Origin: Phoronis australis
Taxonomy: Eukaryota > Animalia > Phoronida
Reading direction: 5' to 3'
DNA: 64,000 nucleotides
Assembly (NCBI GenBank): GCA_002633005.1
Contig: NMRA01000496.1
Location: forward strand, 1,005 to 65,004
Shown here: one piece after another, positions 2,429-36,823 of the stretch
Layout: each line of letters begins with the position of its first letter
Position numbering within the stretch: position 1 is the stretch's first letter
The notes under the pieces: model-generated
The model's input: the letters and a program-made list of their open reading frames with translations, nothing else
The model's database searches: none
Told to the model about the DNA's origin: nothing
Made by a program: the position numbers and the translations under genes

Positions 2429-2601
2429 CTGGTCCCTTTATTTCACTTGACAGTTTTTCCACCAGTTCTGCAAGTTCCTCCAGATGGAGCTGGTGCAGCA
2501 TGTGGGTTAATTCACTGTAATCTCCAATATTAATTATCACTTCCCGCTGAAGCTGTTCAAGAAGTTCCTGAGTGCTTGTTATATTTTGCAGTACTGCTGG
2601 T
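2429..2601 (-). CDS. Exon: second half of death effector domain
   Basis: Acceptor ttgcttttcag, donor CCAG|gtatga; 173 bp, phase 2->1. Encodes PAVLQNITSTQELLEQLQREVIINIGDYSELTHMLHQLHLEELAELVEKLSSEIKGP, which fits the helix 3-6 pattern of DEDs. Lies within ORF 2343..2636. Confidence 0.8.
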
Positions 2602-3329
2602 CTGAAAAGCAACAAGACATTCAAAATCACATCCATCTAAAATCACGCCTGCTCACAAAAGCCTGAGCAAAAGTTGTACATGAGAATAAAAAACCTTCGT
2701 GATACAAATCAGGACGATTCCACAGTTCTCAAATAACAACATTGATGAAGATCCTCAATAGTTTTAGCTCATCAGTTTCACCCCCATGATTACCTCAGTG
2801 ATGGGACTACTCTAAAAAAGAGTATCACGGGGAGGGTACTCTAAGATTTAACATTACGTATTGATATTCAAATTTCTTGAACCGATGTTAAGCCCCCGTC
2901 ACACCAGAGGAGCGGTGCCACCACGGATTTTGGTCAAAACAGTCATTACGTAGTGACACCGTCAGTGGTATTTTCATAGTTTTCCCCTACCCGTCACACA
3001 TGCTTTCTTACGGTGCTACTCAGGTACAGGAGCGGAGCCACGGCGGTGTCAAGGAGGACATGGAGATTCCATGAGGTACCACTGCAGCTTGATGGCGGTG
3101 CTATTGCGATCATTGGTGGCTTGACTGCTAGGCAGCTCTACGGGACCTGTGAGGTGCCATTGTGGGGAAGGCAGTACTACTGAGGCGCTACTGCGTGGAC
3201 GCTGCTGCTTCATAACGGCTCTAAGACGTACGCGCAGTGGTTAGTATATGGGAGGTGGTATTTGGTGCAATTCCGTCCCATATTTGCTCCTGCGGAGGAC
3301 TTTGCTACAACTGTTATTGTTACTGTTAC

Positions 3330-3625
3330 TGTCACATTCTGAAGCCGCTGAAACTGTCAGAGTGAGGAAAGCCAGCAAGAAGCACATGACGAGTCTTCAC
3401 AGGATGAGCACGCTGATTGTGCTTCTGGTGCTGAAGATGCTGCAGAGTCTGACCACCAGTCCGTAACTAGCCAACCAAAGAATAAAAAGTCTGCACTGAT
3501 CTTAAAGAAGAGGACGTCATGTCGGACTTGCCATGTGGCCATCCGGAGCTTTATAACAAGAAGCTCAATGCTCATAAAGATAACATGTAGAAGGACTCTT
3601 CGTGGGCTCAGCAAGCAGCCAGGCT
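3330..3625 (+). pseudogene. Harbinger Myb/SANT (MADF-like) ORF remnant
   Basis: One frame reads ...HPELYNKKLNAHKDNM*KDSSWAQQA..., similar to the MADF-type ELYxxxxxxYKDxxxKxxxW pattern. It converges on the transposase as expected for Harbingers. Confidence 0.55.
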
Positions 3626-3639
3626 TGATAAGCCATTAG

Positions 3640-4350
3640 CATTCCTGCTGATATGGTATCGCGCATCAGACGTGTATCCATCTCCACCAACATCTGTCCA
3701 GAGGAATTGGTATTCAGCGTCAACAACTCCCATCAACACCATTGAATAGAATCCTTTTTAATTGTGAAAGAAGCTTCCACTGCTGGGAGGTTTGCGAATT
3801 GCGACGTGCTTTCCACCCAGAGCCCCACAGCAAAGGGACGTCCTAGCGCTGCTTGAACTTGTCAGCTACAGCTTTACATTCGTCTTGGGTCGTAGGGCAC
3901 TGGATCACCTCGTCTTTAGACGCTTCAGCAATGGCCTGGCAGACTTCCTTGACCAACACAGATACTGTGTTTGCTGGTATCCGGAAATCGAGCTTGATTA
4001 GAGCCCAAGTGACGAAGAGATGCAGCCACATTCGTCCCTGTGTACAACGCCTTTCTGTACTTACTGTCCTTCTTTGTGATATGTGATCCAACCCTGACAA
4101 GTAACTCATCAAACATCTCGGACTGAATCTAGGTGAGGGAATTCTGGCACCGGGCTGGACCCTCTCTACTGAACTCGACCATAAGCTGGTTGTAGTGGCC
4201 AAAATGTTCACGTCTCACATCGCCCAGCTGAGGTCTGTCCCAGTGTCTTTTTCGTCTTGGTCGTCTTCTTCTTCGCTCCAGGGCAATCATTGGTTGCTCA
4301 TCTTTTGACTGGTATTGCTGCACATGCAGCAACTGCTGTATGACGATCAA
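3640..4350 (-). pseudogene. Harbinger/HARBI1-like DDE transposase remnant (frameshifted)
   Basis: Fragments FDELLVRVGSHITKKDSKYRKAL, FRIPANTVSVLVKEVCQAI..DEVIQCPTT, then GALGGKHVAIRKP..SG..F and V.DAEYQFLWTDVG are typical of Harbinger transposases. Confidence 0.85.
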
Positions 4351-7300
4351 ATTTCTATTGTTATCTGTTATTCCGTTGAGCTTTCAATACTGACTGTCGA
4401 TCTCAACTCAAGATTTTTAGAACACTGAAATTTAAGATGAAAAACGAACCTTTTATTCTAAAAATTAGGATTGCCGTAGCACTGCGCAAGCACCTCGGTG
4501 CAATCTCGGTGGAAATGTCATTGCCGCAAAAGCAGCTCAAAAACGCCGCCGTGGGATCGAAGTAGCACCGCAGTAAGATGGCCAAATTCCTCGCTGACTC
4601 CTCAGTGGTATTCCCTTACCCTCAGTGCTTCTATGGTAGTACTGCAGTAGAACCGTTACGAGATCGCCGTAGTGTCGCCAGTCTACGTTTTAGCTGATTG
4701 CACGCAGTTGAACTGAGGAAGCACGGCGGTGATGGAGGTGCTTCTGCGGTCCCTGTATGGTGCCACGGCGGTCATGAGAATGTACTGGTGATCCCACTGC
4801 AGAGCATGTTCAAAGTTTCCGCCGTTCCATGGCGAAGGTCGGCGGTTTTGACAGTTTGCCGTGGTGCTACGGCGACCACTGACGGAACCACTGCGGTACC
4901 AAGAGTGGTATTTGACACAAACTTCAAATCACTTGTACTATATCTCTGGTAGATACATGTACATTGGAATCGTGTCCAATTCCACGATGATCCACGGGGG
5001 AAATAGTATTGAACAGCAAAGTAATAAATATGGCGCTGCAACAGTCTAACCCAGTCTGTAATCGTCGACAGTAGTGCACGTCAAGGTAGAAACACGTCTG
5101 TCAATTTTCATACGTGAATTTTTCTTTACACTGGTTAGTCCAATAGGTAGGAAAATTGCAAAACAGTTTATATGCATTAGGAATGACCAAAAGCTAACAC
5201 ACAATATGTTGAATCCATTTAAAACATTGTTATTGTGTGTTGGATAGAATTCATTTACCATGCTTCATGAAGATCCGTGAAGGATTTAAGAAATGTAAAC
5301 AACCATTTCAGACAAATTTATTAAAGATCCTGCATGACGTTTAGGACCATATACCACCACAGACGAAAAAACAAACAAACGTCATAAAGAGGTGCCACAG
5401 CAGTCGAAACTTTCCCAAAGTCAACGTTAGCTGTGGTGTTCTCGGTAGAAATACATATGTCAGTTTTCAAAATGTTAAATATACTAGAGACTTTACAGAG
5501 AAGTGCGTCAATAAACATTTTATAAATTCAAGAAAAATGGTCACTGGCACTAAATGGCTTAAAATACGTCAATAATATACACAGTCATAGCTATATTCGC
5601 TTTTACACAAACTACCCTACAGTATATGCCAACTTTTACAACAATCCGTCTAAGCAAGTAATAATTACGGACGTAAAGGAGAAAACAAATAGCCATTAGG
5701 TGGTGCCACCGTTGTGAAGAGCCATCGAAAAATTATCGTAAGCCGTCTGCGTCCCAGAAGGACCACGTATGTGTTCACAATCGTCCTTAACGTATATGAA
5801 TATGCCAATCTCATGTTAATATGTCAATCCTTAAAATAGCTTGGTATAGAGAAAGCGGACGCCAAAAACACTTAATGACAATTAAAGCGGCAAATCCGTG
5901 TTGGTGGTGCAGAAAACATGCACGTCAATTATCTCCCTGCAGAACGAGAAGACGGTGACGCATTCTTTAAAAATACCTACTTCCCAACTTTTATGAAAAT
6001 TCACTCATAATTTGGAGCATACAAGCCGAATCGTAAAAACCTACATCGCAATTAAGCGGCATTCCACCGCGTAATCGGATCCGTCCAAAATTCGGTCATA
6101 CCGTACAATCCATGATACGAACATGTCTGCAAAGTTGACAAACATCCATGCAGAGGTTTTGGAAATAAAACAGCGAATGAAGGACAGATGACCACCGAGC
6201 AAACGAACGTGGCACGAAAGGATGCCGGTAGAGGATGACTGTATGACGCATTCGCACATACATTGTACATGAACAGTGTAGGCATATGGGTGCATAAAAC
6301 GAGAAAGGATTGAACAACATTGTAAAACAATAAACTGCAGCAAAATTGGAGGTGAAGAGAAAATATTTTTCAAAAAAAGGAATTAAAATGGTAAATGTGT
6401 TTAATCTACGGTTCAGTTTATGAAAAAACGTATACAGTACATTATACGTGTTACCTATCTTGCACGTTCTGTTTGGAAATAGACATTTAACCCCAAGTTG
6501 TGGCTGGGTAGCAATTGATACAGGTCACTAAACAGAGTGATTATTGATTGATTGTTTCCACGATCTGGCATGGAAGGAAAACTCGACAAACCTGTGAAGC
6601 AGAGTGACTTTTGCAACTAAGAGTGTCGACAATCTATTGAGAATAAGTCACTGTTGTTTCCTCATGAAACTGTATAGCTGGCGAGCTGTTGTGAACTGAA
6701 GTAATACCAGTTTACACGTTCTACAATTTGAGTGTTAAACCTTCCATAAAAAGTGTTAATTTCATTCACATATAAGTCCACGAGTATTTATTATTCAAAA
6801 ATAATGAACTACTTCCAACTATAATGAAATTAAATTTTCATTGACAACAGCGTTTAACTACTAGGCTATCTTTGATGTTCCATCAAGATTATTTAAAAAC
6901 AGTTGGAAAGCGTGAAGATAAATGAGATATCTAATAACATGGAACGTACAGGTTGATATATGAGACTCAAGTGTTGAAATTTGGTATAAGGTCACAAGTC
7001 AAACTCTACAGGCTTTGTTGTTTCAAAAAAGATTTACAGTTACTGAGATATAACTACGATTTTGAAGATATTTCGCAGAATACATGATAAGGTTCTGAAG
7101 AATTGAACCCACACAAACCTGGAACACGTTCAACATGAGACGGCGCCAGTGGTGCCATGTACACTTGTTTTTCAGTAACTCATTTCAAGCGAAATCTCGT
7201 AGTTTTGGCCATTAAAAGCTTGTTTTCGAGCAAAGGCGAGTGATTTCGTATGATTCCTCTGACAAAAATGGAGTCGTAATTCATGTTTTTGTGATCGATA

Positions 7301-7493
7301 TGGCGCTCTTTGGCTATGCTGACTGAATCAACAGCTTCTTACGCATTTTGTTTCATTTTCAAATTGGCATTTCTTGACCGACCAAAGTGGTGCTGTAGAA
7401 AACTTTATGACGAAGATTGATACACGGGCGATTACTTTCAGTCACTGTGGAGCATATGATTTATTCGTAAACATGTTATGTTGTTTTTCTTAC

Positions 7494-7605
7494 GTAATCC
7501 AAACTTCACACAACCCCCTTAGACTTTCAAAATCACGACCAATGACACGTTCAGCAACTTCATGTAGCAGCTGTTGATGAAGTTTCCTTGCCACTCGCCG
7601 TTCTC
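7494..7605 (-). CDS. Exon: first half of death effector domain
   Basis: Acceptor tatttattctcag, donor ATTAC|gtaaga; 112 bp, phase 1->2. Encodes ERRVARKLHQQLLHEVAERVIGRDFESLRGLCEVWI(T), similar to the DED pattern F/Y.qLL.ei.e.L...dl.sLkfLc.d.I. Its phase matches the 2601 acceptor exactly. Confidence 0.8.
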
Positions 7606-7824
7606 CTGAGAATAAATAGACACATTTCTTAGTTACGTTAACATTACAGATAGCCGTTGTTGCACATGATCTAGCTGTCCTAGACATCGTTCTATTTAGT
7701 ACCCCATTGAATTGAGGAGAATCACAGTTGTTGGGAGCTTTCCATCATAAATATTTCTAGTGTGTTTAATTTTGGTCGTTATTTTGGCAAAAACGAGTGG
7801 ACCCCGTGATAGTTAAGTCACGAG

Positions 7825-9760
7825 ACATTCTTTCGATGGCAGGCATGAAATATTAAAGTTCTTGAGTTTTAGCAGTACTCTAGAAAAGTGTCCAAATTTA
7901 GCCAAAATCTTATCTGAAAAATAAACGACCATATTGATACGAAACTTTCAAACACCATGTTTTATCCATCGATTTTTAAAATTTTAGATCAGAATTTGTT
8001 TTTAAAAGTTTGATATTCAGCATGAAGCATTATCAAATATATTATTCAAAAGGTTGTTTGAAATATATTCTAAAAAATCAGTGCAGGCGGTCTGATACAC
8101 GTTGTACCAGACGTGCGCAGGCCTCACATGTGGGCCCATTGCACTGATCACCTGATTGTTTGAAATGAACAAAGAGAGGAAACTTAGAGAACTGTGATAT
8201 ACATGTGGTCTTCATCTTCAACATCTACATTAAACGAAAATTAACCATGCTATTAGAACCTTGCAGTAGTGTTGCAAGGTTACGTTATATAATCACGTCT
8301 ACTTCATACGTATATTGTGTCACTGGAATGCTACCACTACACAATACTTCCAGCACACTGAACTGGGTTCCATGATGGTGAGATTTTTCATGATGCGGAC
8401 TAAAAAATGACTATACTTTGTTGTTAGCAGGAAGAACATTTGAAAATACAAAACGTTGACAACCGCTAATGGATATTCCAGCTCTTCAGCAAACTGTTTA
8501 CCGTGTTTTACGTAGCCACAATACGATGTGACCATGCCTCAATACTACAGTACATAAGCTGGCAATCCAGACTGTTGGAGAATGTTGTCAAGTCTATCAA
8601 TGCGGTAGGGTGCTTCACATATAATGTACGGTAATATTTTAAGGAATGTTTCGTCATCTTACTATTTGACGTCGTCTTTCTCTGTACACCCTAGGCAAGC
8701 CGACCAGGAGGGCGTACCGACAGTGAGGTAATAAGTGAAACAAGCAAACTATACCAAGATCTTCCGACGTGGAGGGGATTCAACGGTGCAAGTGCATGCT
8801 TGGGGGATAACTTGCATATCCAGGTAAAACTCCTAAATGCACAATTTGGCAGCGCTACAGAAATGATTGTTGTTTAGGAAACGATACCTCTTTTAACAAC
8901 ACAAATGTGAAAGCGTGGGCTTTCAAACATGCCGAACCATTGGTAGTTTTGACACAGCACCTCATTTACAGGCATGTTGGAAATTTCGTGCATGTAATGA
9001 ACAGCTGCAGTCAAAGTGAATGAAAGTTGAGGTCGAAATATTGTATAATGATACTGAATACACTATTTAAATTGGGAGCGCCGATGTTTCGCTTGGGCCG
9101 TGTGGGTAAGATAATAGATTACAGATTTTAGGACGAACACCAGGTTGATTCCGGCAAAAAATCCCAGCTTATTGTACAATCCAATATCACCAACATTGTA
9201 GTTTGTGCAGCGATCACCATTTTTTCCACTCAAGGTCAGGCTAGTAAGTTCGCTAGCATTCATATAAAACACAAACATTTCACTAAAGTGATTTTGCGAA
9301 GTATTCAGATATCTTGCTTTTTGGTAAAAATAGGGCTACGCAGTGTTTTTCCGTTATACGCCAATATGGTGAGTCAAGTTCACGCTATGGAAACTCAATT
9401 TTTCTTACCCGTTGTAATGGAGGTTAGTAGAATAGCAGATGGCGTTCCGCTTGCCGACTCTTCCTGAAACGAAAATGAAATTCAAAGCACAGAAAAAGTT
9501 AATAGTACAGCAACATACCCTCGAGGTAAATCTGTTAACCTGAAAAACACAAGACCTGGCAAAGATCTCGAAATTACTATGGATGGTTTTATGCTTTGCC
9601 TCTTAATTATTTACTGTATTTACCGGGATAATAAACAACAGGTGGGTCAAAATTGCTTCAAAACTCATTCATTTTAAGTTCATTAAAATAACATGTTTTA
9701 AATTTCGAAGAACTGTACAGAGACATTAAAATTGAAGGCCTCGGTGTTGCAATGCAATAT
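7825..9760. repeat. Diverged direct duplicate of intronic segment 16620-17600
   Basis: Shared blocks include cagtactctagaaaagtgtccaa, ttgtttgaaatgaaca, gttcacgctatg.aaactcaat, ctcttcctgaaacgaaa, gttaatagtacag and gcctcggtg.tgcaatgcaata, in the same order. This copy has about 1 kb of extra sequence. Confidence 0.75.
8755..8832 (-). CDS. Candidate linker exon after UPA (EFYLDMQVIPQACTCTVESPPRRKIL)
   Basis: Acceptor tgcatttag and donor TTG|gtatag; 78 bp, phase 0->0, open, and reads plausibly after ...AVKVH. A further 0->1 exon would still be needed to reach 7605. Confidence 0.3.
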
Positions 9761-11002
9761 ATTTCAATGCTGTCAGATTTTTTAATATGCTGACGGGAAG
9801 TGATCCCTCGGTTGTTATCAGCATAGATAAAACAGTCCATAACAATACCATAAATAATACAAAAAGCAGTAGTTTGATCAATTACATCGGTAATTGCCAC
9901 AATTTATTACCACAATACTGTACATGAACATACATATACAGTATGCAGAAGAAATAAAAACTGTTCACATGGTGCGAGTAGAGCGCTCGTAGGAAGTCCA
10001 CCCGATACAGGATAAGTGCTGGTGCATCCTGGATAGTTTAATCTTTGAGCAATTTTGATTCGCAAAAAACCTTTATCTTTTGAAAAGCTTGCGAAACACA
10101 AGGCTAAATGGATCCTAGATTGATCCGTTCTGTAGCATTGTAGAACTTTAAATTCTCTATACGTGGCGGTGATTCTTATAGTAATTGAAAAGTAATCATG
10201 TCTGGCCACTTTAACTGGGCTTTTTCTCATCCATATATTATTGGGTTGGATTATGTGTTCTGCAAGCATAAACTAAATCATATTATTCCCCATACTTTGT
10301 ACCCTCTTGATATTATCTGTTGTAGACAATCTGCCGCAAAAACCTGGACTAAACTCCACCCCCCCCCCCCAAGCCAAATAGAAAAATCTGAATTTAATTC
10401 AGCTATAATAGATTTTTAAAATTTTGATAGTGATCTGGGCACGTTTCAAATTCAATCATAACAGCGAAAGGTCTGACGAAGACCCGGTTAAAATCGATGC
10501 CTAAGCGTCTAGGTGACCTCTGGAGACGAACAGTACTGCTATGTGACGTTATTCCCAATCAGTGGCATGCCTCCTGATGTGCAATGTACTTACTCTTTTA
10601 CACAAGTTTCGCACTGTTCCCACACAGTTACCAAAGCATATTCGACAGTATTTTCAATGTTTACAGTCACATGACTTCCTGTTCTGACTGAAGCTTTTAC
10701 CTACGCAGTTACGTAACATCACAAAGGGGGTAGTTTGAGGCTGCAAAATACCCGAGGTATTCCCAATGAACTCTAAGACGATGGTGGTCCTATGTAGGCG
10801 TTTGTAAAGACTAAACAATTGTGAACATAGTATGTTACGTCGCTGGCGTCAGAGTTCAGCGAATGTTTCCGGGGCATTTACATGTAAATGAACTGTTGTG
10901 TTGACCGGGTGCATTCAAATGTTCGACCTGGGTGCGGCAGTCGAGTGCCAACAGTAGAACTTTTGCACCGACAGTGAAGGTTGTAACATAAGTTCGGCGG
11001 AC

Positions 11003-11891
11003 CACAGGCACCTTTAAGTAGCTCTCTACAATATATCATATAAAGAGAAAGGTACACAACTGACATTCAATATGGACGTCTGCCGGCCACTTCCGGAATA
11101 ACCCAAGCACGTCAAATCTGAGAGTAATTTAACTCAAACATTTTATCTGCGACAGCAACACGTTCATTGCTTCCATTTGTTGACATATAAAGCAATAAAT
11201 ATCATAAATACCTCCAGATCTTCCTAGTTCAATCCTCAACATTCAGGAACAAAGCGAAAAGCAAGAAGGCCTCGTATCAGTTTCGTCTAATGCGCATGCT
11301 CATAAGGTCCCTCGCGACATCTTCAGAGCGCTGACATCAACTAAAAACAGCAACATTCAGAGAAGAGGCTCTTGACAGTAATTTACGAATATGTCGTCCT
11401 ACCTAGCATGAGCATGTGAAAAAGCAGAGCTGTCTGTGGCCTCTTGAAAGTTTGACCTATTTTTGCTGTACCCAATCAGCGTGCTCATAGAGTAACATAT
11501 AAATAATGTAAATTACTGTCAAGAGCCTCTTCTCTGAATGTTGCTGTTTTTAGTTGATGTAAGCGCTCTGAAGATGTCGCGAGGGACCTTATGAGCATGC
11601 GCATTAGACGAAACTGATACGAGGCCTTCTTGCTTTTCGCTTTGTTCCTGAATGTTGAGGACTGAACTAGGAAGATCTGGAGGTATTTATGATATTTATT
11701 GCTTTAGATGTCAACAAATGGAAGCGATGAACGTGTTGCTGTCGCAGATAAAATGTTTGAGTTAAATTACTCTCAGATTTGACGTGCTTGGGTTATTCCG
11801 GAACTGGCCGGCAGACGTCCATATTGAATGTCAGTTGTGTACCTTTCTCTTTATATATTATATTGTAGAGAGCTACTTAAAGGTGCCTGTG
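11003..11891. mobile_element. Non-autonomous foldback element with 384-bp inverted arms and 7-bp TSD (P-superfamily-like)
   Basis: Arms 11003-11386 and 11508-11891 are near-perfect reverse complements around a 121-bp spacer. Termini are CACAGGCACC...GGTGCCTGTG, flanked by GGCGGAC on both sides. Confidence 0.9.
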
Positions 11892-13863
11892 GGCGGACTA
11901 ACTGGGGACCACGAGATAACGGTGTTCATATCGGATGCTGAAAGGAAGGCACTGACCAAAAATACACGATGTACAAGCTATGTGGAATACTAAGCTGGGC
12001 TCTAACTCGGTAATATTAGTTTGGGTGCCACATGGACATAGTCAACACAGTTAGGATACATATTAGTGTTTGTGTGTAAACGCTTACGGTTGAAGCTTAG
12101 TTAATTATTGTTTATTTAAATGTAACTTTTCTACTGAATTGTCTGATTAAAGTCACGTCGTGACTGCGTTTCCTGGTTTACTTTTATAGAACCAAAAGTG
12201 ACTTGGGCAGTTCATTTTGCCATCCCCAATGAAGTGTATGTCATTAAAACTCATTCGCATTTTCCCGTTGCTCCCAAGTTGTTCGATTCTATAGCCCAAC
12301 AACATGTTGGGAAGTTTACCCCTGCAGCCAATATCTTACATCACTGATTAACTCCATTCTGGCATTGATGACTGGATGGCCAGCTCTCTTTTGTTCGATA
12401 ATTGCTCTAATCTCCAATAAGATCATACCTACCTTGACTGGGCTCTGCTTTAAAAAAGAAAAGTTAAGTAATACCATATCTGAACATAAAGCAATAGCAT
12501 TTCTGAAATCTTTCTCAAATGTCAAAAGATGATCATTGTTTAGTTTGTGAATCGCCAAAATCCCACAACTTCAACTGAAGTTACAATAATCTACTCTTTC
12601 TGAACACACCAATTCACTCTGAGTTTCCCAGCGTTCACACGTGGTCTGTACTAGGCCTGGTAAATTATTGGCCTGCTTGTTGTCATAACAGACAAAAAAG
12701 TGTTCTTGGCAGTTAACAAATAAGCTAGATGTTATAACATGCACGTCTGGTTAAGTCACCGAACGGGAAATCACTGTCACGATAGGGTCAAGTTCGTCTG
12801 AATCATAAAGGTGTAGCACGGGTGACGGGTACGTAACTAAAATTGTCAACATTCCAGCAATTTTTGATGAAATTTGTACGCAAGTTTTTGGTGATTGCTT
12901 TTCCAGTATTTATCCCCCACCCTTCGGTCAAACCACTAAAATTCCCACGCCCACGGTGTGTTACTAAATCGCCAACCACAATGGTGCAGAAGAAGACGCG
13001 ATGAAAGTTTGAAATTGTGGGCCACGTAGACAGGGGAAAAGACTTTTCCAAAGTGGAATTTATTTCTGCCCTACAATAATATTTACGTCCATAAAGGTCT
13101 GTCCTGCTTAGAGAGAAATCAAGTGTAAGTACAACATTCCTCATCCAATCAAAACACATTCCAACAATATTCTTTTGCTCGCCGGTGTAATGTCCTAAGG
13201 CGACAGGTTCTCGTTTAATTCACCTGATTACATAAGCCCGCCATAACTTCAGTCTATTGTATACAAAATCCTTAATCCCAAAGACGCATTGCCATCTCAG
13301 ACGTGTCGCTGCATTGGTGTACGTTCAAAAAGATGAATCAAATGTCCAACAACCTCCCATTCACACTAGCAAGAATTCATCAAGGGGAAGAGCGATACTC
13401 TCGTTTTGTCCCACTGGATAAAGGTGTGAACCCAAGGGACATCTCCCGAGCACACAATGCGTAGAGAACCAACTCGGATTCATACTCTGGCTCAAATGTC
13501 AGGTATTTTAAACTAAATTGTTATGGCAAACAGGAGGGCCTACAACGTCGCATATTCAGGATCGTCTTGGGGTCCGCTTCATCGTCCCCATCAACGTAAG
13601 TATAAAGTATGTTTCATACAATATGGAATTGTATTAAAACAGGGAATTCATTAACTGCACGAGTCCCGGCGGATCAAATACCTGTAGTTTGGATCAAGGA
13701 GTAGGGTTAGATGAATGGTTATTTTTCATTTACGTCATTGCCAATTCAAGCCTTTCCAGCCGTTGTAACCGAAACGCTGACTCCTGATTCATACTCCAAT
13801 ACACCACACTCAACCTGCAGTCCCACACTCAAAAAAGACAAGAGAAACGAGTAATGTACTTAC

Positions 13864-14708
13864 ATGAACCTTCACAGCCCCGTCCATCAGCGTTTCCTTG
13901 TAGATAATTTCCTTCACGCGCAGTCTAACCTTGTCAGCCACAAGTGCACGAACACTAGCTTCAATCATCTCAAAAACTGTACATGCTCTTTCACAATGAT
14001 CCCTTTCAAGTTCAAACCCTTTAGAGGAAATTTGTTTCTTTTTGTCATCCTCAATGCTCCAGCATAAAATTCCAAACAACAACGTGGCGCTATTTATCAA
14101 ACGCATTTTGTAACTTGTACACTCGTGATCAATGTCATCAGTACACTCCACGTCCACGCCATGACAAAATAGTTTAACTATCAACCCTCCATCCTGTCTT
14201 TCTTTTATGTACGGGCATATCCTGCACATGTATGACGCTTCGAGTATATGTTTGATGGTCGTAAACACGCCAGTAGTGATAGGTGATGTGCAATCTGCCA
14301 GCCAAGCAATATTAACCATTGAGCATGTTTTAGAGTAGAAGATTATTTCCTTCCATTGCAGCCTGACATTGCATTCTTCAGTAATGTCCGTCACTTCACC
14401 ATCTTTTTCATGCAATATGCGAAAGTCTTCGCTCTTTAGTCGTTGATCATCCACTTTTCCCAACATTGCTGCAACAGTCACTCGCACTTCGACTGGCTCC
14501 GAGAATGTTAGATTTCCATCTGTGCAGGTCACGCATATTCTCTGAGAATAGAGGTTAGCTCTGCCTTGGGTGTCGTAATGCACTGCCCGTGCTAACAACA
14601 ACTGATCTACAAACTCAATTTCTATGTTCCCGGATATTGCATTTGGTGGTACTCTGAGTTGAACCCCTTTGTACCCAAAAACTCCACCGACTGCTCCATC
14701 AATAGTTG
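13864..14708 (-). CDS. Exon: ZU5 domain plus probable UPA-like domain
   Basis: Acceptor tatccctatag, donor GTTCAT|gtaagt; 845 bp, phase 1->0, no stops. TIDGAVGGVFGYKGVQLRVPPNAISG and YSQRICVTCTDGNLTFSEPVEVRV match ZU5 motifs (GG..GV.L.IP.GA; SP.V.C.P.G..F..PV). The UPA call rests only on position and beta-rich composition. Confidence 0.8.
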
Positions 14709-15037
14709 CTATAGGGATAGAAATGACATTTATCAGTACTTGGGAAGGATTGCAACGAAAGTCAATTAAGTTCCTCGTTTTCTTAGCAAGTAGCTTTTAT
14801 TAGTGATCACTTCAATGTGCAGACTTTGGCACATATTATCTTAGTAATTTTGAATTTCCGTTATCAATTACAATCCGGGAATGAGAAGGTGACGATGGCA
14901 CCCTTTGTCCTTTTTATCGCTATAAATTTGAGAGTAAAAAAGCATGTGTGAGAGTAGCTATTCGGTTAAGCAGAAAAATACCAAGCATTCCCCTTTTTTC
15001 GGAAAGATCGTGCCCCTGAACACGGCCGACCTCGTAC

Positions 15038-15065
15038 TCATTGCTCGGACTGCTTCACTTGGAAG
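15038..15065 (-). CDS. Candidate 28-nt phase 0->1 linker exon (LPSEAVRAM)
   Basis: Acceptor caattttag, weak donor ATGA|gtacga. It restores frame between the ankyrin cap exon and the ZU5 exon. A 7-nt alternative exists at 16327-16333. Confidence 0.3.
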
Positions 15066-15242
15066 CTAAAATTGAATTGTTTGTGAGATTTGTTGAATGT
15101 TGTGCACACTCTATTTTCACGAAAAATCGGGGGCACTTAGACATTCCGGGAGTGACGTCAAACAACCTACATAATTTCTTCTCCCTTCCGTTTGATTCAA
15201 AGGACCAACTTTAAAATTCCTGAAAAATTACTGAGCGATTAG

Positions 15243-15610
15243 TTTGCAGGGTGGACCTACTGATCTGGTGATACAGGGTGGTTCTACTGGTCTCAAGACA
15301 CAGGGTGGTCCTACTGATCTCAAGATACAGGGTGGTTCTACTGATCTCACTATACAGGGTCGTCCTACTGATCTCACGATGCAGGGTGGTCCTACTGATC
15401 TGACGATACAGGGTGATCCTACTAATATGACGATAGTGGGTGGTCCTACTGATCTGAAGATACAGGGTCGTCATAGTGTTCTTACGACAAAGGGTGGTCC
15501 TACTGATCTCACAATACAGGGTCGTCATAGTGTTCTTACGACAAATTGTAGTCCTACTGATCTGACGATACAGGGTCGTCATAGTGTTCGTACGATAAAG
15601 GGTGGTCCTA
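15243..15610. repeat. 27-bp minisatellite (about 13-14 units)
   Basis: Unit cagggtggtcctactgatctgacgata, with a variant cagggtcgtcatagtgttcttacgaca alternating in the right half. Confidence 0.95.
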
Positions 15611-23600: not shown

Positions 23601-26069
23601 CGTTTGAGCGAGCGCTGTGGCCAGCGACCAGTTAGGCCTAAGGGTAGCCTTGGCGCAAAGCTGTATAGGCCTAACAAGCTGTATTTTGACGATAGTCTTC
23701 ACTGGTTGCTGGTGACTGAGACTAACTAAAGTCTGCCGCGGCAGTGTTACACAGGACTAACCAGCCCGTAATTTCATGCAAGTATCTGAAACTACCCTTG
23801 AATATATGCAGCATTTATCATTTGACCATTTTACTTCGACGAAACAGCTTGCAACCGCATGCATTTACCGTTCGCCAGTGTCTGGTCTCGATCCGCACCG
23901 GGTCCGATAGGCTGCGGTCCCGAGTCTGGCAAAATAATTTCTGTCAAAATTTATTCGCCACATTTCTTCAGCAAATTCCATAAAATTGTCCGTAGTTTGA
24001 TTTTATCAAAATTAAGGCGCGCTGTCGATTTTTTTATCCCCGTTTGCTGGCTGGTAACAGTACAGGCACTGCTCCAGTCGCACTGACGGCGTTTTCTCGG
24101 CCTGGGTTCCTGAATGAATTGTACTTCGGGTTCCGCGGCAAGTTCAAAATGGCGGTGGTTCTTCGGGTGCGAATCGTGAGTGGCGCGTTCATTTAAACTT
24201 TTTTCGAGTACGGATCGTGTATTAGTTATGGGGTAGGTACTTCTTGGATCCTTATAACATCTTCTAACCATGTAATAAGGGTTAACAACGCGTGAGAGAA
24301 GGACTTTAACGATTGCTGTTCATATATGTGCGCGTCCAAAAACAGGCCAAAACACCTGCACACGCCGAACGATGCTGTTGTCCAAATTATATAATTCTGT
24401 TCAAATGCTTTGCACGTACAGTGTAGATGCGTGTGTTTCAATTCATTTGTTGGTCCAGGTGCCTTTCGTAAACGGGATGTTTTTATTTTATTTTTTCATC
24501 AAGGGTCAGTACTTTGCATTTGACTAAATGTACGTCAATGTTTGCCATTTTGCATCGCATAAACACAATCAAGGCGCATGGCATAAATACGCGCACACGC
24601 AGCAAGCGGAACGATAAAGATGAATGGCTGCATTCATGTTACTTGGGCAGGTACAGTGTCGTATTAATGAGCAAAAGTGAGAGTATGGTTCGTGCTTATA
24701 TCTCAGACAATCAGAGGTTGACAGGGGTATTTTCTTGAGTGCAGGCCGGGCGTCAGCGTCAAAGCTCGGCTAAGTTTAACTTTTTGTCAAGTTGCAAAAG
24801 TTTTTGATTTAACGACAAGCTGAAACATGTGCAGCTACATTGGGAAGATAGGATTTTCAGCAATACAGTCAAATCTTAAGAAATTTGAGTATGTTAACAT
24901 ATAATCACGCTCCCTTAAAATCCACTGAAATGTCTGTTGACACAGTCAGTACATGTTTTCCGTGGGGGGCAGTCGTGGAAATTTATCGGTAAAAGGGACA
25001 ATAGCTCATTTGAAGAGAACATCAGAATCAAAGGATGAAGCAACCATAGTTGAATTTTCAATTTTGAGGCCAAGAACCGACGACTTTTCATTTTATATCA
25101 TTGTCAACAGGGACAGCACCACCCCTTTCAAATGACCGATAATTCACCAGACTGCAAGCTGCTTCGTGCAGTACAGTGTCGCAACCCTTTGAGAAGTTTA
25201 AAAAGCCTCTTCAACAAGTTTGAATTGCTCTGAAGAGTCGTTTTAAAAGAGTGGCGTAACATTTATCAAACTAAAAAGATCATCAGGGGAAAATCTTAAT
25301 CCAGTATTTTCATATAGGATCTTATCTTATGCTTCATTCATACAGTAAATTAAGTTGTATGTCTTTGTATGTGCGCATGCTTTTGCGTACTTTTGTATAA
25401 TTTTTTAATTCTACTCAATTCACTGTATCAAAATTATCCACTGCCAGACAATTTCAGTGGCGGAGTGAACTCAGTATTTTGATTTGCAATTAAAGCTTCG
25501 CTCATAAATTACGGTCACAGACAACTAGGGGAATCAGTCAAGATAAAGGGCACCAATCTCTATCAACATTTCCGCGACAATGATGGATGTATTTCTTGTC
25601 CCGACACTCCCAAGTTATGCTTCTGATCAAGACTGTTTCACAAGAAGTTCACTGTATATCATATTTAAAAGTAAACCCAACTTCACCGACACATGTAGAC
25701 CATCGAGACTTGCAAACAACACTATGCTTAGTTTAAACAACAAGGCGCAATTAACAGCAGGCATTTGGTGACTTAAAGGTTTCTTTTTTAGAGAGTTTCG
25801 GTCAATTTTAAGGTTTTTAATGAATCAGACAATTTAGCCTGATGTCGCTTGTGCGAAGAAACATTAAAAACAGTGCATAGCACAAAATTAACCGTCCGAA
25901 TGAAACCGACGTGAACCAACATATTTCGTGGCACCGTGTAAAACTAAACATCAACATTGAAATGATGAAATATATCATTACAGCCTTAGAAGTTTTTGCA
26001 ACTACATGATACAACTGATAAAACTAAAACTGATACTTTACTAACGGGAAGATAACACCACATCGAAAA

Positions 26070-26315
26070 GCTATAGCAAGGTTAAATGACATGCTCACTA
26101 TTCAGGTAAAGTTATAGCGAAGTTAGATGACATATTCACTATTCAGGTAAAGTTATAGCAAAGTTAGATGACATGTTCACTATTAAGGTAAAGTTATAGC
26201 AAAGTTAGATGACCTGTTCACTATTCAGGTAAAGTTATAGCAAAGTTAGATGACATGTTCACTATTCAGGTAAAGTTATAACAAAGTTAGATGACATGTT
26301 CACTAATCAGGTAAA
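26070..26315. repeat. 41-bp minisatellite, 6 units
   Basis: Unit gttatagcaaagttagatgacatgttcactattcaggtaaa; the array ends about 40 bp from an ankyrin exon donor. Confidence 0.95.
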
Positions 26316-26357
26316 AGTGTGTCTTACCACACAGTTCCATTTACATTCATGTTTTAC

Positions 26358-26456
26358 CTTGTTGACAACTGTGACGTCACCATCCTTTTCCACGAGGAGT
26401 TTCACAACGTCCAGATGGCCGTATTCACAAGCACCGTGCAGCGGTGTGTCGCCATT
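26358..26456 (-). CDS. Ankyrin repeat exon 5
   Basis: tttgatgtag|...AACAAG|gtaaaa; 99 bp, phase 0->0. Encodes NGDTPLHGACEYGHLDVVKLLVEKDGDVTVVNK. Confidence 0.95.
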
Positions 26457-28845
26457 CTACATCAAATAAAACAGGCTTAAATAAACAAATACGAGTACAA
26501 AGCGAGATACTTATCTGCATGTATACAATGTAACAGGACATGGTTGGGTAAGTGGCAATGCTTTAGCAGTTTCACGCAAATTGTAAACGAACATTGACAT
26601 GTCTTAAACCGAAATAAAAACGACCTAGTTATAATCCATCACTTCCCACGAACTTATTGAACAAAGCGATTTTCCGCTTGGTCAACAGAGCGACAAAAAC
26701 AACACCTTCAGTGAAGATGTGAAAAAATAAACCCACAAGGAAAATCAAACATAACAATACGGTTAATTACCAGGAACCAAAGTGAAACTATTCTCATTTA
26801 TCCTGCTTACATGTTCAGTAATAATTTTCTGATCAACGTGTATTTAATTAGCTGTTGCCACACCAGCATCTTTCTTCTCGGAATATTCCATGTCGCCGAC
26901 CACCATTGGACATGCACGACTGAGTACCGGTAGCAATCGGTTAGTCACGTACATGTACAACTCCCGGAAACCAAGCCGAGCGTTTAGTTTCTAATTAAGG
27001 ACGTATTCAATACATTAGTTAAAAACTCCATTACTATTTAGCCTATTGGTCCACTTCACAGAGCATGTCTAATGTCTGCAACTCGTACGGATTGTCAATG
27101 TTTCCGTAAACATACATGTACCGTAATCCACGGAATACAAGGCCATGACCTGATGGTACTGTATAGCCGTTTACTGGAACATAAGGCCACAGCTGTATAG
27201 GATGGGTCATTTCTATTTTAAAGTGCTCTGTAAAAGTTCGTTACTTTGCCTATAATGCCATAACAAACGTAGCACAAAAACGTGTAAAAGAATGCGCGTG
27301 ACAATATTATTAATAATGTTAAAATAATGATGATTAAGTTAAGTAAAACAAGATACGTGTGATCACATCGCACAACACCATACAGCACAGCTACTCCGCA
27401 CCCAGACAGTGTTCAGTGTTTGCCATTTCGGAATTCGCGGCATAGTTTGCTTGCCATTTTATTGTTCTTTACCATTACATAAAGTTTTTGTCCTGATTGG
27501 TAAGCCAGAATAACGCCATTGCCTTACATAGTACGGGTCATTTGCATTTTAGTGTTCTAAAATGCATTATACGTTTAGTTCCGCACGGATGTAATGTACA
27601 TCGTTTGTTCAAAGAAAAATGCTTAAATATTCCACAAGCACTAGCAATGGATCATCCGCCTTAAATTAAGCGATTTTTTCAGGGTTGGTACATTTTCAGT
27701 ACTTTTCATTTAACAAAAAATTGCAAAATTGAATAAACGTCAATGTTTGCCAATTAGTTTTTCAAATTTAACAAAACAAAAAGTAAAGGAGCCATGTTCC
27801 TACAGCTCAACACGGTTGTGGAATTGCGTGACGCAGAAACTTCAAATTGTAAAATTGACAAATAATTAAGCAAAACCAAAACGTTCGAGTTATTATTCAT
27901 TTGAATCAAGTCCCCCGGGATTAGCGGAGAGTTTACTCTAGCCGAACAGAGATAAGAGACACTTTCAGTCAGAACTGAAAAGAAATAGATATCAGAGAAA
28001 AATCAAACACGTTAATCATGTACGTTATCGACACTTTAAAAATTAAACCACTTCCACTGATTTGGATTTTATCGAGCAACAGTTTGACAATTACTTTGTA
28101 ATAGCCAAGCTTTTCAACGGCAAGTGCTACACCAGCGTCTTTTTGCGGAATAGTTCGTTTCGCCGACCATCTTCTTTTCACCGATGTGATCTTCCGCTAC
28201 TTGAAACCGATATGCGTTTTCAAATTTTATATGATCCAATAATCAAGCCGTGTTTTAATTTTAATTTCAATTGAAGGACTATCCCAATACACAATTTCAG
28301 AACAACATAACTGTACAATATACCTCGATTATCAATTAGCATTCAGTTGGCAATTTATTTTAATTTCACGTCCCAGCTTCTCTTATTCTTTCGTTACTTG
28401 TTCAGGTCCATGCATATCTTCAGCTGTGCGTTTGTATAAAAAATCGCTCGAACTTCCTACTAGCAATCGACCACCACTCTTAAAACTGAGTGTTCTAGCA
28501 TCGTCATTGGTACATCTTCAGAACCTTGCCTTTAAAGCAACATGTCAACGTTTAACAAGTTGTACTTGAAAAGTCCATTTTCACTCACGAAATCTTTTAC
28601 TCCTGTTCACGACGGCAGACTCAGTGAAATTGGCAGAGTCTGCAGATTTGAAATTTTTCGCTTTAAAATCAGTATGGACAAGATTGCACGATGTTCTGCA
28701 GCCGTTCTGCGACAGATTCGCGTGCGAACTGAGGGTGTCGGATACCAATCTTTGGAGTTTCTAACCAAATGTATTGTCGAAACATTACGAGTCACAATCA
28801 TTTTGCCAAGGTTCAATTCTATTGGACATACACAATGTGTGGAAT

Positions 28846-28870
28846 CATAGACTATAGTCTATAATCTAGG
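28846..28870. mobile_element. 25-bp fused-TIR remnant with 7-bp TSD (probable P-type excision footprint)
   Basis: GTGGAAT|CATAGACTATAGTCTATAATCTAGG|GTGGAAT. The first 13 nt are identical to the element end at 59738. Confidence 0.7.
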
Positions 28871-31800
28871 GTGGAATGCAGTTGCAGACAATTTCGTGTT
28901 TGACTTCATAAAACGTCAATAATGTATGCACAAACCGGAAGCGTTCGGACTTTACGGTGGTGGAGAATAAGGAAGACGTGCAATTTCTTTACCGAGGGTC
29001 AAATTGAGCGGAAACATCATACTTCAGTTTTACTTCAGATTGGTGCAGAATGTGCAACTTGGGAATCCAGAATCTGTGATTTTTTGAAGATTTATGAAGC
29101 TGCTTCATCAAAGGACACCCAGGGTCGGTATTTGGCGCCCGCAGAGAGCGCACCCCTCACGATGTTCTTTTTAGCTTAGTTACTGGAAAATCAGTTCTTT
29201 GATAAAATACATGATTGTTAACTGAACTACAAACTCAAAGACGAGAGTCAGTTACGTCTTTTGTGTAGTCTATACCTGTATGACATCCACACTAAATTTA
29301 CATATTATAATGTTTCAATAATATGACTTTGGACGGGTGAGGAAAGCGAAGACACTGTTGACAACCGTAATCATAAAAATGACCTAACTTCTTAATAAAT
29401 TATGAAAACAGCCATAATTTGCATTACTGTAAACAAGAGACACTGCCACTTATTTTACGATTGTTATGTTGCTAAAGAGTCTGCACTGTGAAAAATAAAA
29501 ATATAACTTAGTTCCTGACAAATAGTCAATGTTACTTAGATCACTTCCTGTCATAGTTGTCAGTGTTGGAGAAAGAAAAGTGACAACTTGATAGCAAAAA
29601 AATCTGGGTCTGGTAAAAGAACGAGTGAAATGATTGCAGCAACAGAAGAAACTAACCTACAGCGTTTTTGTCGAACGAAGATTACGAGTGTCGCAACGCC
29701 AAAGCGCAAGAAATTTTTGAATTTAGTCGACTGCAAACTTAAACACGTTGTTTACTCAGTTTATGAATGATAGCTACTGAGTCATAGCTCACGAGTATTT
29801 GACGACGCACCAAGGTGTGTTCGACACCTAGATTGTACAATGTATTTTTACAAAGCGCACACTACCTGTATGATGGTGACATTTTTCAATCAGATTTGTC
29901 ATTTGCATTTTTTACTTAAAGAGTGAGGCAAAATGCTGCTAAGCCCGTCAAGATGCCCAACAACTTCTACACGAATATATCCACCTAGGTCCGAATAAAA
30001 ACACCTTGACCAACTAAATTCAACTGCAACTGAGCAAACGAAATAGTCTGTTAATCCCTTGCGAGTTTGTAAAAACCTGGGAAAGCGAGGATTCCACTCC
30101 TTGATTTTGTTTCTCGTTTTATTGATCTAAAATTAACAGTTTTTGCTCTACTGAAGTCATGTTTTTGAACTTGGGTAATAAATATAATTTCCATGTTTAC
30201 AAGTGAAGTCAACCTCACCGACACATGAACACCATCGAGACTCACATACCGCTATCTTTTGTTTTAACAACAAAAAAGGGCATTAACCTGAACTTTTGAA
30301 ACATAAAAAATACCATCTCGGTGATATATTTGTCGATTTCAAGGTTTTTAGTGAAGCAGGCACCCACTCGTAATCAATCTATTTTGATGCAAGATATTCC
30401 GGCATCAATTTGAATTCTTTCAGCTTGAATTTGGTGAACTTAAATAATTGTATCGATATTATAAGGGCAAAAAACGTGTCACTTATAACAAGCAGTCGGT
30501 ATTTATAGTTTTGTTACTGCATGTGGCGATTACGAAGGGATTCTCAATGCAAAATTCCCGACATCACTGGCTTGCGCGAGAGGAACTTAAAAGAATACTA
30601 CATAGAGCAGAAATAACAGTTTTTATGAAAATGGCGTTCACAAACACATTTCATGGCTTATAAAGAAATAAATGGCGCTTCGATTTAATAATAGAAATTA
30701 AATATGTACAGAACTGGTTTTAAAGCAAGATGAAGGTCTTTTTGATGGAATAGGTCGTTGGTAAATGAAGAAATCCTCAAACTCAGAGTATCCTGTGAGC
30801 ACTACCCACAAAACTGTAAAATCAGTTCCGAACATCAGGTGTATTCATTCTCCAATGTGGTGGACCTCAGATAAGTTCCTACATCATTTTGAAGTTCCTG
30901 TTGTACATTTTAAAAGCAGTAAATGAGATATTTGGACTGGTTAATGTATGTTTGACACATGAAACTTTTGATAACGTGGCCACCAACACAAATCACGTCC
31001 AGACCTAATCAAGATGTTTCAAAAAGAAATCACGTACGACAACACAAGCCCCACGTTGAAATGATGAAATACATCCTTATAACCTTAAAAGTTTCCGCAA
31101 CTAAACAATAAAACTTGCTGACATATCAAGAAGACGAGAGATCAACAAAATAAACACCATACCGTATTTTTGAGACGAGTGAAGCAGACGACAGGTATAA
31201 AACACGGTACTGTTTCCGACAACAAAATTCATGCAAAAATCGTAAACAAACCAGCTTCAGTGTATACACAATTTAAAGCACCTGCACATGTATACACAAA
31301 CTTTGAATTTACATATTGTATTGTGGACCACAGCTCGTTTACTAGGTTCACAGTGCTCGGCTTGGCACCGTGATAAAAGGACTTGTGCTTTCGACGGACT
31401 ACCTGGGACTTTGCCTCAGTCACGCCCTAGATTTCAACTTCATAGAATAGTAAATCCGACCATGGCAGGAACATACACGGTTGTTTGGTGGTTTTGAAAT
31501 ACATGTACAGTTAAGCCACGGGGTTAAAACACACGGATAAATTGATTGCTAAATAATCGTTATATTGAAACAAGCGAGACTAAAACCTTCAGAAATTTTC
31601 TAAACGCGCATTTGATTCCTTGCAGTGACTCGAATATAAACCTGCATGTTTTATAAATAATGAAGCGAGAAAATCTGAACCTGTGGCTGTTGTCTATTTT
31701 TATTTCGTGCCGAATTATCGCGATTAGACAATCTGCTTTGATCCATTGAGTGTTATGGGAAGGTACATGCAGTGAAGAAGTGACTTTTTTGTGTAACTCT

Positions 31801-31925
31801 ACGCAGGAGACAGATCATTTTTGACGACATATTTATTACAAGTGAATAGTGTTCGAACTCATAGTACATTTAAAACACATTTATTACAGTCTCAGCTAAA
31901 CAAGAGTACAACACTCTTGCAATAC

Positions 31926-32027
31926 CTTGTTGACGGTATTGACGTTGCATCCGCTTTCCCTGCACAGTAGTTTCACTACCTCTGTATGTCCACCTGCAGA
32001 TGCCTTGTGCAGCGGTGTGTCACCCCA
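31926..32027 (-). CDS. Ankyrin repeat exon 4
   Basis: cttactgtag|...AACAAG|gtattg; 102 bp, phase 0->0. Encodes WGDTPLHKASAGGHTEVVKLLCRESGCNVNTVNK. Confidence 0.95.
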
Positions 32028-32576
32028 CTACAGTAAGTGAACAAAAATAGATAATGTTGATCAGCATTATACAGTAGTGATGTGAGTGGGTGAACAGGTC
32101 GAGTTTTATACTTTTCCAGTTTAAACTTTAACATCAGTTGCAATACTGATGGAGGGTGTGACTCAACAGGACAGATTAAAACCTGACATTTAAACTCAGA
32201 CATAACTTGCGCGGGATTTTTAAAAAGTTCCTCTGACCTGATATAGTCACGTGATTGAAAAGAGTGTTTTAAATATCACAACTTGATCTTATACATTACA
32301 ACAGAGAACATTCATTTAATGAGTGCTGTGGAAATGCAAGTAAAGAACCACATCACTGTGCAAGTCTAGGTGAACTAAAACTGTTTATAATTAGTTAAAG
32401 TCGCGTGCACGTCACGTCACGTGCGGTGGAATGCAACAAAAATGTCAATGTTTAAAATGAAATCATAAATCACGATTAATTAAATCATTGAATGATTCAG
32501 CCAAGTCACATGTTGTGTGTTCATCACGGTGTGTAAACAACTAGTTCAACTAAACAACCTGTGTGTCATTACTTAC

Positions 32577-32678
32577 CCACTCATCACGTACATCTACACT
32601 GGCCTTGTTGGCCAACAGCAGCTTCACTGTGTCTGTATGACCACCCTCTGCTGCCTCGTACAGCGGTGTCCGGTCATC
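32577..32678 (-). CDS. Ankyrin repeat exon 3
   Basis: attacatag|...GAGTGG|gtaagt; 102 bp, phase 0->0. Encodes DDRTPLYEAAEGGHTDTVKLLLANKASVDVRDEW. Confidence 0.93.
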
Positions 32679-33038
32679 CTATGTAATATATAATGGAGAT
32701 GTGGGAATGGACGATCAACGTTTAGAGCTAAGTAACATACACGGGGGAACGTGAACTTGTAAGGTGACATAAATGAAACATTACGGACCCCTCTAAGACG
32801 CTACAATACTTGTAATGAATTCAAGAATCAGGTGTTACAGATTTTAAAACGTTACAGAGCATGTTACAACTCTACGCAGCTTTGGTTCTTCACCAAGAAA
32901 AGCAGACGACATTGAACTTGTCATTGTTTTAGGACAATAAATTGTGAAAAATATCAACAAAACTTGTTCCTAAATAGTTTTAATCATCGTGTTTGTTAAC
33001 AACTAGCTCAACTAAACAAACTGTGTGTCATTACTTAC

Positions 33039-33137
33039 ATCATCACGTACATCTACACTGGCCTTGTTGGCCAACATCACCTTCACTATGTCTGTATGAC
33101 CACCCTTTGCTGCCCAGTGCAGCGGTGTCTGGCCATC
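33039..33137 (-). CDS. Ankyrin repeat exon 2
   Basis: attacatag|...GATGAT|gtaagt; 99 bp, phase 0->0. Encodes DGQTPLHWAAKGGHTDIVKVMLANKASVDVRDD. Confidence 0.95.
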
Positions 33138-33702
33138 CTATGTAATATATAATGGAGATGTGTGAATGGACGATCAACGTTTAGAGCTAATTAACATACA
33201 CGGGGGAAAGTGAACTTGTAAGGTGACATGAATGAAACATTAGTAACCCCTCTAAGACGCTACAATACTTGTAATGATTTCAAGAACCAAGTGTTGCAGA
33301 TTTTAAAACGTTGCTGTAAGAACAGAACATGTTGTAGACGTCCATTGCCAGAAATTACAGAGTTCCTCCATAACTTGACAGCGATCCCGCCATGTTGTAT
33401 TTCTTCACCGATTTTCTGGCTTCGCGTTTAATATAAAGTTGTAATGTTGAATGGACGATTGTTATTAAGAATAGAAAAGTATCAACTTTAAGTCGACAAA
33501 TATATTGTTGACACAATTCAAACCTCAATTTTTCTTAAGATGCATGTACACAGTACAGACTGAAAAATATTTGTTGAAATCATGAGATATGAAAAGTGTA
33601 TTTACACACAAAATATTTCGTTAAACTTCAGATAGTCTACAGCTTTTGTAACAAAGATAACATTGTCTTAATTCTAATGTCGTCTCAAGTAATTGCTATT
33701 AC

Positions 33703-33798
33703 CCAGTCTAGCACTTCTACATCGGCCCCACCCTGCACCAGCACCCTCACCACCTCCGTCCTGCCCCACACTGCTGCTATGTGAAGTGCTGTCAGGCC
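33703..33798 (-). CDS. Ankyrin repeat exon 1 (first recognisable)
   Basis: ttgtttctgcag|...GACTGG|gtaata; 96 bp, phase 0->0. Encodes GLTALHIAAVWGRTEVVRVLVQGGADVEVLDW. Confidence 0.93.
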
Positions 33799-36760: not shown

Positions 36761-36775
36761 TTTGCAGTGGTCGTC

Positions 36776-36792
36776 AGGGTTAGGGTTAGGGC

Positions 36793-36823
<31 letters not shown>

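Follow-up and report, generated by a model that had tools for sequence, protein, structure and literature searches.

A transcribed Phoronis australis gene with an ankyrin array, a predicted ZU5-UPA stalk and a likely, weakly assigned death effector domain

A spliced gene of ankyrin, ZU5-UPA and death-fold order

A chain of 11 minus-strand exons, running from 33798 to 2429 in a 64-kb stretch of the phoronid Phoronis australis genome (contig NMRA01000496.1; hereafter the window), is a real spliced and transcribed gene, its product following five ankyrin repeats with a predicted ZU5-UPA module and then a death fold that is likely, if weakly so, a death effector domain (DED). AG precedes and GT follows each of the 11/11 exons, the phases of adjoining exons agree along the whole chain, and splicing yields 603 residues with 0 stops; stop-free frames arose in 0/20000 random chains with the same exon lengths, a control that does not model the picking of exons by a reader. 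The strand, exon order, canonical splice sites and stop-free frame had been proposed in an earlier note made from the letters of this DNA, and all are borne out; the exons listed there did not suffice, as two short linker exons are also required. In order of translation, the N-terminal part comprises exons 33798-33703, 33137-33039, 32678-32577, 32027-31926, 26456-26358 and 18565-18482, followed by linker exon 1 (17253-17211; phase 0-1), the ZU5-UPA exon (14708-13864; 281 full codons, phase 1-0), linker exon 2 (9463-9409; phase 0-1) and the two exons of the likely DED (7605-7494 and 2601-2429).

Transcription is documented by four RNA-seq runs (X1-X4; a small share, 0.07) carrying the same species label as the DNA, mapped onto positions 1-20000 and 17201-37200 of the window; counts given below are among the joints listed, and variant tables comprise the best-supported rows only. 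Over the ZU5 exon, first-mate depth in X2 is 44 on the plus strand vs 0.45 on the other, indicating a minus-strand transcript, as expected of usual stranded libraries. Junction reads and contigs, junction reads being among the checks that the earlier note had named, provide a joint for 10/10 neighbouring exon pairs; one gene with the order ankyrin, ZU5-UPA, death fold holds. From exon 4 to exon 9 the joints are exact or near-exact, mostly with 5-43 reads per run (X2, X3), including exon 4-5 (10 reads in X2, 13 in X3), exon 5 to the sixth exon (X1, plus 8, 5 and 1 reads), the sixth exon to linker 1 (17 and 43 reads) and linker 2 to the ZU5-UPA exon (joint 9462-13863; 9, 9 and 7 reads), and a 483-base X1 contig apparently spans ankyrin exon 5 into ZU5, with equal depth at three joints. 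The 1-2, 2-3 and 3-4 joints are represented mainly by X1 contigs carrying other letters at the joint, that of exons 1-2 by an X1 contig, 2 reads in X2 and 1 read in X3; the exon 9-10 joint is present only with a shortened linker 2, and the exon 10-11 joint (7495 to the last exon) by 4 + 4 reads in X3. The gene is likely one of several similar copies, and X4, with a binned depth of 15-45 over the ankyrin exons and 1.8 over the ZU5 exon, suggests relatives having only the ankyrin part in common.

Ankyrin repeats, linkers and transcript variation

Each ankyrin repeat occupies one phase-0 exon, and five of the six N-terminal exons lie well above the Pfam Ank gathering cut-off (Pfam accession: PF00023; 21.1 bits), with scores of 36.2, 44.5, 35.9, 39.8 and 40.7 bits for exons 1 to 5, a range of 35.9-44.5 bits; a profile made from four of them finds five exons above chance in the whole window, and no more. 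The sixth exon (18565-18482), which had been counted as another ankyrin exon, has no Pfam match and resembles an ankyrin cap that has degenerated, so that five full repeats stand out of the six claimed. Exons 2 and 3 form a tandem duplicate (91% over 325 bp) with flanks identical at 164/175 and 44/48 positions and, judged by this identity, are recently duplicated. Exon 3 differs from exon 2 at 10 coding bases, 10/10 of which change the residue, and by one extra codon; by repeat numbering, about half of the differences presumably fall on the concave face. The concave face is described as the binding face of ankyrin arrays (PMC8229355).

Linkers 1 and 2, the introns on either side included, are paralogous (67% over 730 bp), and linker 2 also occurs in transcripts in forms 21 or 36 bases shorter, both in frame. 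Joints running back to where exon 4 begins (20 and 13 reads) and to exon 3 (X1, 7 and 3 reads) are found beside direct exon 2-to-4 joints (17, 4 and 11 reads), and variant shares inside one run include 9/45, 19/38 and 25/35. Transcripts therefore differ in how many ankyrin repeats they carry and how long their linker is; the back-joints could also be explained by circular RNA. At 31929, two X1 contigs run from ankyrin exon 4 into sequence not in the window, which, inspected by eye, resembles a further capping repeat, from a relative with fewer repeats.

Coding differences between copies are predominantly non-synonymous: 22/25 listed differences in the ZU5-UPA exon, 7/7 in exons 6-7 and, pooled with the 10/10 between ankyrin exons 2 and 3, 39/42 (P 0.002 against neutrality), suggesting positive selection from the sequence comparisons, with strong purifying selection on the ZU5-UPA exon ruled out (P 0.0004 at dN/dS 0.2). 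Of the 22 amino-acid differences listed for this exon, 14 lie at its residues 59-92 (14432-14532), several of them reversing or removing charge, and this segment may form a variable surface; such variability among copies is compatible with a sensor role.

Linker 1 and the ZU5-UPA exon together form a frame-neutral cassette of 888 bases (phase 0 to 0), and its removal in silico leaves an open ankyrin-DED frame of 307 residues with 0 stops; no joint skipping the cassette is among those listed. Because the cassette is frame-neutral and the linkers are duplicates, the gene was likely assembled by exon shuffling.

The ZU5-UPA exon

A ZU5-UPA module is predicted from the sequence of exon 14708-13864, the UPA half resting on the Atlas, where the best clusters are ZU5/UPA proteins (0.96, 0.95 and 0.95; 186 shared features at 0.96) whose commonest taxa are echinoderm, sponge and echinoderm. 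Clusters containing UPA or UPA_2 reach 0.96 and 0.93, and UPA_2, UNC5, FIIND (0.92) and DTHD1 clusters follow among the further matches. The single ZU5/UPA-like exon of the earlier note finds support in its best Atlas match and, for ZU5 and below cut-off, in Pfam, the scores of which are weighed below. A single-sequence AlphaFold model of the module was uninformative (pLDDT 32.6), Foldseek searches with single-sequence AlphaFold models returned no match at E 0.001, and sequence searches of solved structures returned chance matches only. No second copy of the DED or ZU5 was found in the window by tblastn. Homologues of the ZU5-UPA open reading frame (ORF) were confirmed for 0/4352 candidates among longer proteins and 0/671 near its own length, and metagenome contigs gave 0/393 confirmed pattern matches. 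Two matches in a library of 1.84 billion were rejected as spurious, being repetitive proteins aligned over 24-47 residues and lacking a ZU5 domain.

The self-cleaving ZU5 proteins PIDD1, CARD8 and NLRP1 have an HF/S or SF/S motif, its Phe buried, where the ZU5 domain closes. Neither an HFS nor an SFS self-cleavage motif is present in the exon, and PIDD-like self-cleavage of the ZU5 is consequently unlikely on sequence grounds. At the presumed cleavage position (~14328-14320), which we place from its position and the motif pattern, stands TCS, with only the Ser kept. PMC3210808 describes the Ser as required for ZU5 self-cleavage and a Phe-to-His change as crippling; UNC5B, which like this protein has no HFS at the cleavage position, carries Leu for Phe there. 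The best 19-residue hydropathy window of the whole protein is 1.19, giving no membrane span, and the cytosolic location proposed earlier is accordingly reasonable.

The death fold at the end of the shown chain

Exon 2601-2429 aligns gaplessly to positions 33-81 of Pfam DED (Pfam accession: PF01335; 49 positions, E 0.005), and Pfam Death, CARD and PYRIN have no match to it at E up to 10. The preceding exon 7605-7494 has no Pfam match alone and is long enough to supply DED positions 1-32, presumably helices 1-2; of the two DED exons claimed, the second is therefore matched, weakly, and the first is not when taken alone. Named Atlas matches for the last exon fall 10/10 in one clan, led by DED clusters (0.85 and 0.82) ahead of Death (0.79) and PYRIN (0.78). 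Modelled alone (single-sequence AlphaFold), the second exon gives a two-helix hairpin with no Foldseek match, and a search for DED exon homologues confirmed 0/117 candidates. Co-folding of the peptides of both exons scored 0.36 vs 0.01 for the best control (pLDDT 74; at least 94% of contacts the same between runs), passing a mark reached by 51/78 solved complexes and 2/108 mismatches, although passes as low as this are wrong in most cases where the pairing lacks prior likelihood, and a model that has memorised solved death folds can also produce them. A death fold is supported for this helical domain; its subtype is likely, though weakly, DED, the best-scoring subtype by sequence.

A putative sensor and its rivals

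Taken together, the encoded cytosolic protein, whose five ankyrin repeats precede the predicted ZU5-UPA and the likely DED, may be a fast-evolving intracellular sensor or scaffold, its mechanism argued by analogy, a reading that we regard as evenly poised between right and wrong. UPA and the death domain (DD) fold back onto ZU5 in UNC5B and ankyrin-B (PMC9162469), and by the same arrangement UPA and the death fold of this protein could pack back on ZU5 without self-cleavage, hiding the DED. Binding of a target by the ankyrin face would then release the DED, which, once freed, could recruit a DED partner (FADD or a caspase-8-like protease) without a death receptor. UPA might promote oligomerisation, as it aids assembly in CARD8 and NLRP1 (PMC11874512). 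A bolder extension, which we hold to be unlikely, is that of a hypervariable ankyrin receptor family of a marine invertebrate, with an array diversified by exon duplication and surfaces by positive selection, in which an autoinhibited ZU5-UPA-DED stalk would link the binding of a target directly to the assembly of DEDs and caspases, giving a cytosolic death-inducing platform with no need of a death receptor or death domain.

A number of observations weigh against a DED-bearing sensor expressed from this locus. The Pfam ZU5 match (E 0.0015-0.007; 17.1-19.2 bits) lies below its 21-bit cut-off, the C-terminal 139 residues of the exon, its UPA half, have no Pfam match, and the Atlas recognition value of the exon is 2081 vs a mark of 2300. 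The DED alignment scores 17.4 bits vs a cut-off of 35.9, and the top two Atlas clusters for the last exon are unnamed bacterial ones (0.90). Residues 518-603 contain neither an FL dipeptide nor an R-x-D-L motif, of which, according to PMC4915230, FL is conserved in nearly all DEDs and required for chains, and RxDL occurs in nearly all DEDs and is absent from caspase-10; the putative direct engagement of a caspase-8-like protease, as the earlier note envisaged, is somewhat weakened by the lack of both. The majority of mapped reads are <95% identical to the window (repeats included) and hence come from other alleles or paralogues, so that expression of this exact copy is presumptive; among the short reads and contigs listed, none runs the whole way between exon 1 and the DED, and the presence of >2 sequence types per run could reflect pooled animals instead of paralogues. 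Counting 5 unlisted ZU5 contig differences all as silent, the non-synonymous share becomes 39/47 (P 0.11), and the excess of amino-acid changes fits relaxed selection too.

The shown chain, moreover, probably stops short of the true C-terminus. A protein "ending in" a DED is not borne out. Exon 2601-2429 closes with a phase-1 GT donor, and the coverage is what this exon by itself would give: the mean for bin 2002-2668, if assigned to the 173 exon bases only, is 43.6 (X2) and 31.5 (X3), comparable with 44 (X2) and 36.1 (X3) over the ZU5 exon, with a depth of ~4 at 2402-2422 and <=1.6 in bins 1-2001. The transcript thus likely splices onward past the window start, to a last exon beyond position 1. 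Reading through the donor adds 28 more residues and then a stop; no convincing next exon was found in 1-2400, where ten candidate acceptors yield 2-23 residues. In three X2 reads the final DED exon is joined tail to head (2602 to 2435), from circular RNA or from a tandem exon copy in a relative.

Two of the rival explanations concern the DED. Were the domain a conventional death domain or a death fold of some other subtype, the gene would encode a plain invertebrate ANK-ZU5-UPA-DD protein, as the sub-threshold DED score, the absence of both hallmark motifs and the small Atlas distance between DED (0.85) and Death (0.79) would allow; the silence of the Death, CARD and PYRIN profiles, the gapless fit over 49 DED positions and a first exon of the right length for the missing 32 make this explanation quite improbable. 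A DED acting as a decoy or chain terminator, joining a FADD or caspase-8 DED assembly by one face and damping cell death by offering no extension, appears unlikely as well. What we presume to be the FL position, from a gapless extension of the Pfam alignment and the usual place of the motif, reads Gly-Leu, in keeping with the lack of FL, although the register in exon 7605-7494 is one that no tool aligned. The caspase-8 mutant F122G/L123G binds FADD and does not self-filament (PMC11074299), a precedent for such a terminator, but the partners of an invertebrate DED may have co-evolved surfaces, and caspase-10, too, is without RxDL (PMC4915230).

The remaining rivals concern the gene itself. A young paralogue under relaxed selection, transcribed and drifting without a function of its own, would account for differences at or above the neutral non-synonymous share (22/25 listed in ZU5-UPA; 10/10 between ankyrin exons 2 and 3), for eroded functional motifs and for the absence of any protein relative from the homologue search results; against it stand 0 stops among the 42 listed differences, three observed length changes (3, 21 and 36 bases) that all keep the frame, and intact splice sites at all 11 exons over 31 kb, and we regard it as distinctly unlikely. 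That the two DED exons form a gene of their own, the chain being a chance juxtaposition, is scarcely credible. Neither a single read nor a listed contig links the ZU5 exon with exon 2601-2429, and the joints listed do not include 9409-7605 in precisely the form of the window. Yet reads join 9441 to 7585 (5 and 4 reads), 13863 to 7585 with a short linker between them (2 and 7) and 7495 to the last exon, and the exon phases agree throughout.

Relation to known ZU5-UPA proteins

ZU5-UPA stalks are known with a DD in UNC5, the ankyrins and PIDD1, and with a CARD in CARD8 and NLRP1. The product of this gene would act like these ZU5-UPA-death-fold proteins, and by defining features it is outside canonical ankyrin, PIDD1, UNC5 and CARD8/NLRP1. 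UNC5B, with UNC5CL and DTHD1, matches its predicted order of one ZU5, UPA and then a death fold, whereas UNC5 receptors carry a transmembrane helix and extracellular Ig/TSP domains in place of an ankyrin N-terminus without a membrane span, and a DD in place of a DED-like domain. CARD8 and NLRP1 (FIIND, i.e. ZU5-UPA, then CARD) likewise combine, as this protein is predicted to, a sensor region, one ZU5-UPA and a death fold that is potentially caspase-recruiting; their SFS, disordered or NACHT-LRR front and CARD contrast with the TCS at the inferred site, ankyrins and DED-like domain found here. Figure legends of PMC3210808 mention a dog FIIND protein labelled 'ded'. PIDD1 (LRR-ZU5-ZU5-UPA-DD) is comparable as a cytosolic repeat array on a ZU5-UPA-death-fold stalk, but has leucine-rich repeats (LRRs), two ZU5 domains, His-Phe-Ser and a DD, where this protein has ankyrins, one ZU5, no His-Phe-Ser and a DED-like domain; neither LRR nor Death had a Pfam match among the exons scanned. 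Canonical ankyrins (24 ANK-ZU5-ZU5-UPA-DD; PMC5135030) share its predicted order of ankyrin, ZU5, UPA, death fold and the one-repeat exons, and differ in their 24 repeats, tandem ZU5 and DD from a fast-evolving protein with five repeats in the 64-kb window, one ZU5 and a DED-like domain; by architecture, the gene product is not their orthologue.

Marine invertebrates recombine ZU5-UPA modules and death folds freely, limiting the novelty of the combination. An expansion of ZU5 genes with a suggested defence role in a sponge (PMC3482391), fusions such as Death+Death+TRADDN+ZU5+UPA and ZU5+ZU5+UPA+Death in coral, sea urchin and amphioxus (PMC8195603, supplement), and DD/DED/CARD swapping among amphioxus receptors (PMC2575513) have been described. 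A pairing of ZU5 with DED is absent from 90 of the 96 ZU5 entries in supplement file 4 of PMC8195603, which was built around other domains and is not a census, and from 30 of the 66 in file 6, these being the entries covered. Full-text literature searches, which covered few subscription papers and had InterPro outside their scope, returned no ANK-ZU5-UPA-DED protein. What appears to be new is a likely DED version of an ankyrin-ZU5-UPA gene, together with its variable transcripts, within a kind of protein already known. If the DED version is true, the ZU5-UPA stalk can be wired to the caspase-8 arm too, and a variable sensing role of the ankyrin array, if correct, would offer a candidate route to diverse intracellular recognition in invertebrates without adaptive immunity; the significance is moderate, the shuffling of these parts being well documented in marine invertebrates and the DED call weak.

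The gene start and other elements in the window

The start codon lies outside the range 2429..33798 given earlier for the gene. Three in-frame ATG-plus-donor candidates occur in 33800-45000, of which only that at 34864..34875 (minus strand; 4 codons, phase 0) has a strong consensus donor, AG/GTAAGT, and is a candidate end of the ATG-bearing first coding exon; no RNA joint for it is among those listed. An interstitial telomere-type TTAGGG array (36776-36890; ~18 copies) lies ~3 kb upstream of ankyrin exon 1, followed at 37468-40493 by a broken LINE-type retrotransposon on the minus strand, in several frames, with a reverse transcriptase match (E 1.4e-11) at 38674-39588.

Within the gene, the intron after the ZU5-UPA exon holds a long inverted repeat (10991-11903; 90.7% over 922 columns) with reads on both strands, which is fold-back or MITE-like. 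Intronic repeats at 21870-24537, 12007-13340 and 8072-8154 are deeply covered by reads on both strands, with numerous loose ends, and are probably dispersed elements; ORF 12316-12570, tried as an exon, was rejected, having no Pfam match and lying inside a repeat covered on both strands. Frame-broken ORF pieces on the minus strand at 3357-4383, with no supporting Pfam match, appear to resemble a PIF/Harbinger transposase. Minisatellites occupy 15247-15611 (27-base unit), 18883-19234 (50), 26067-26315 (41) and 57882-58810 (28; spanning an N gap).

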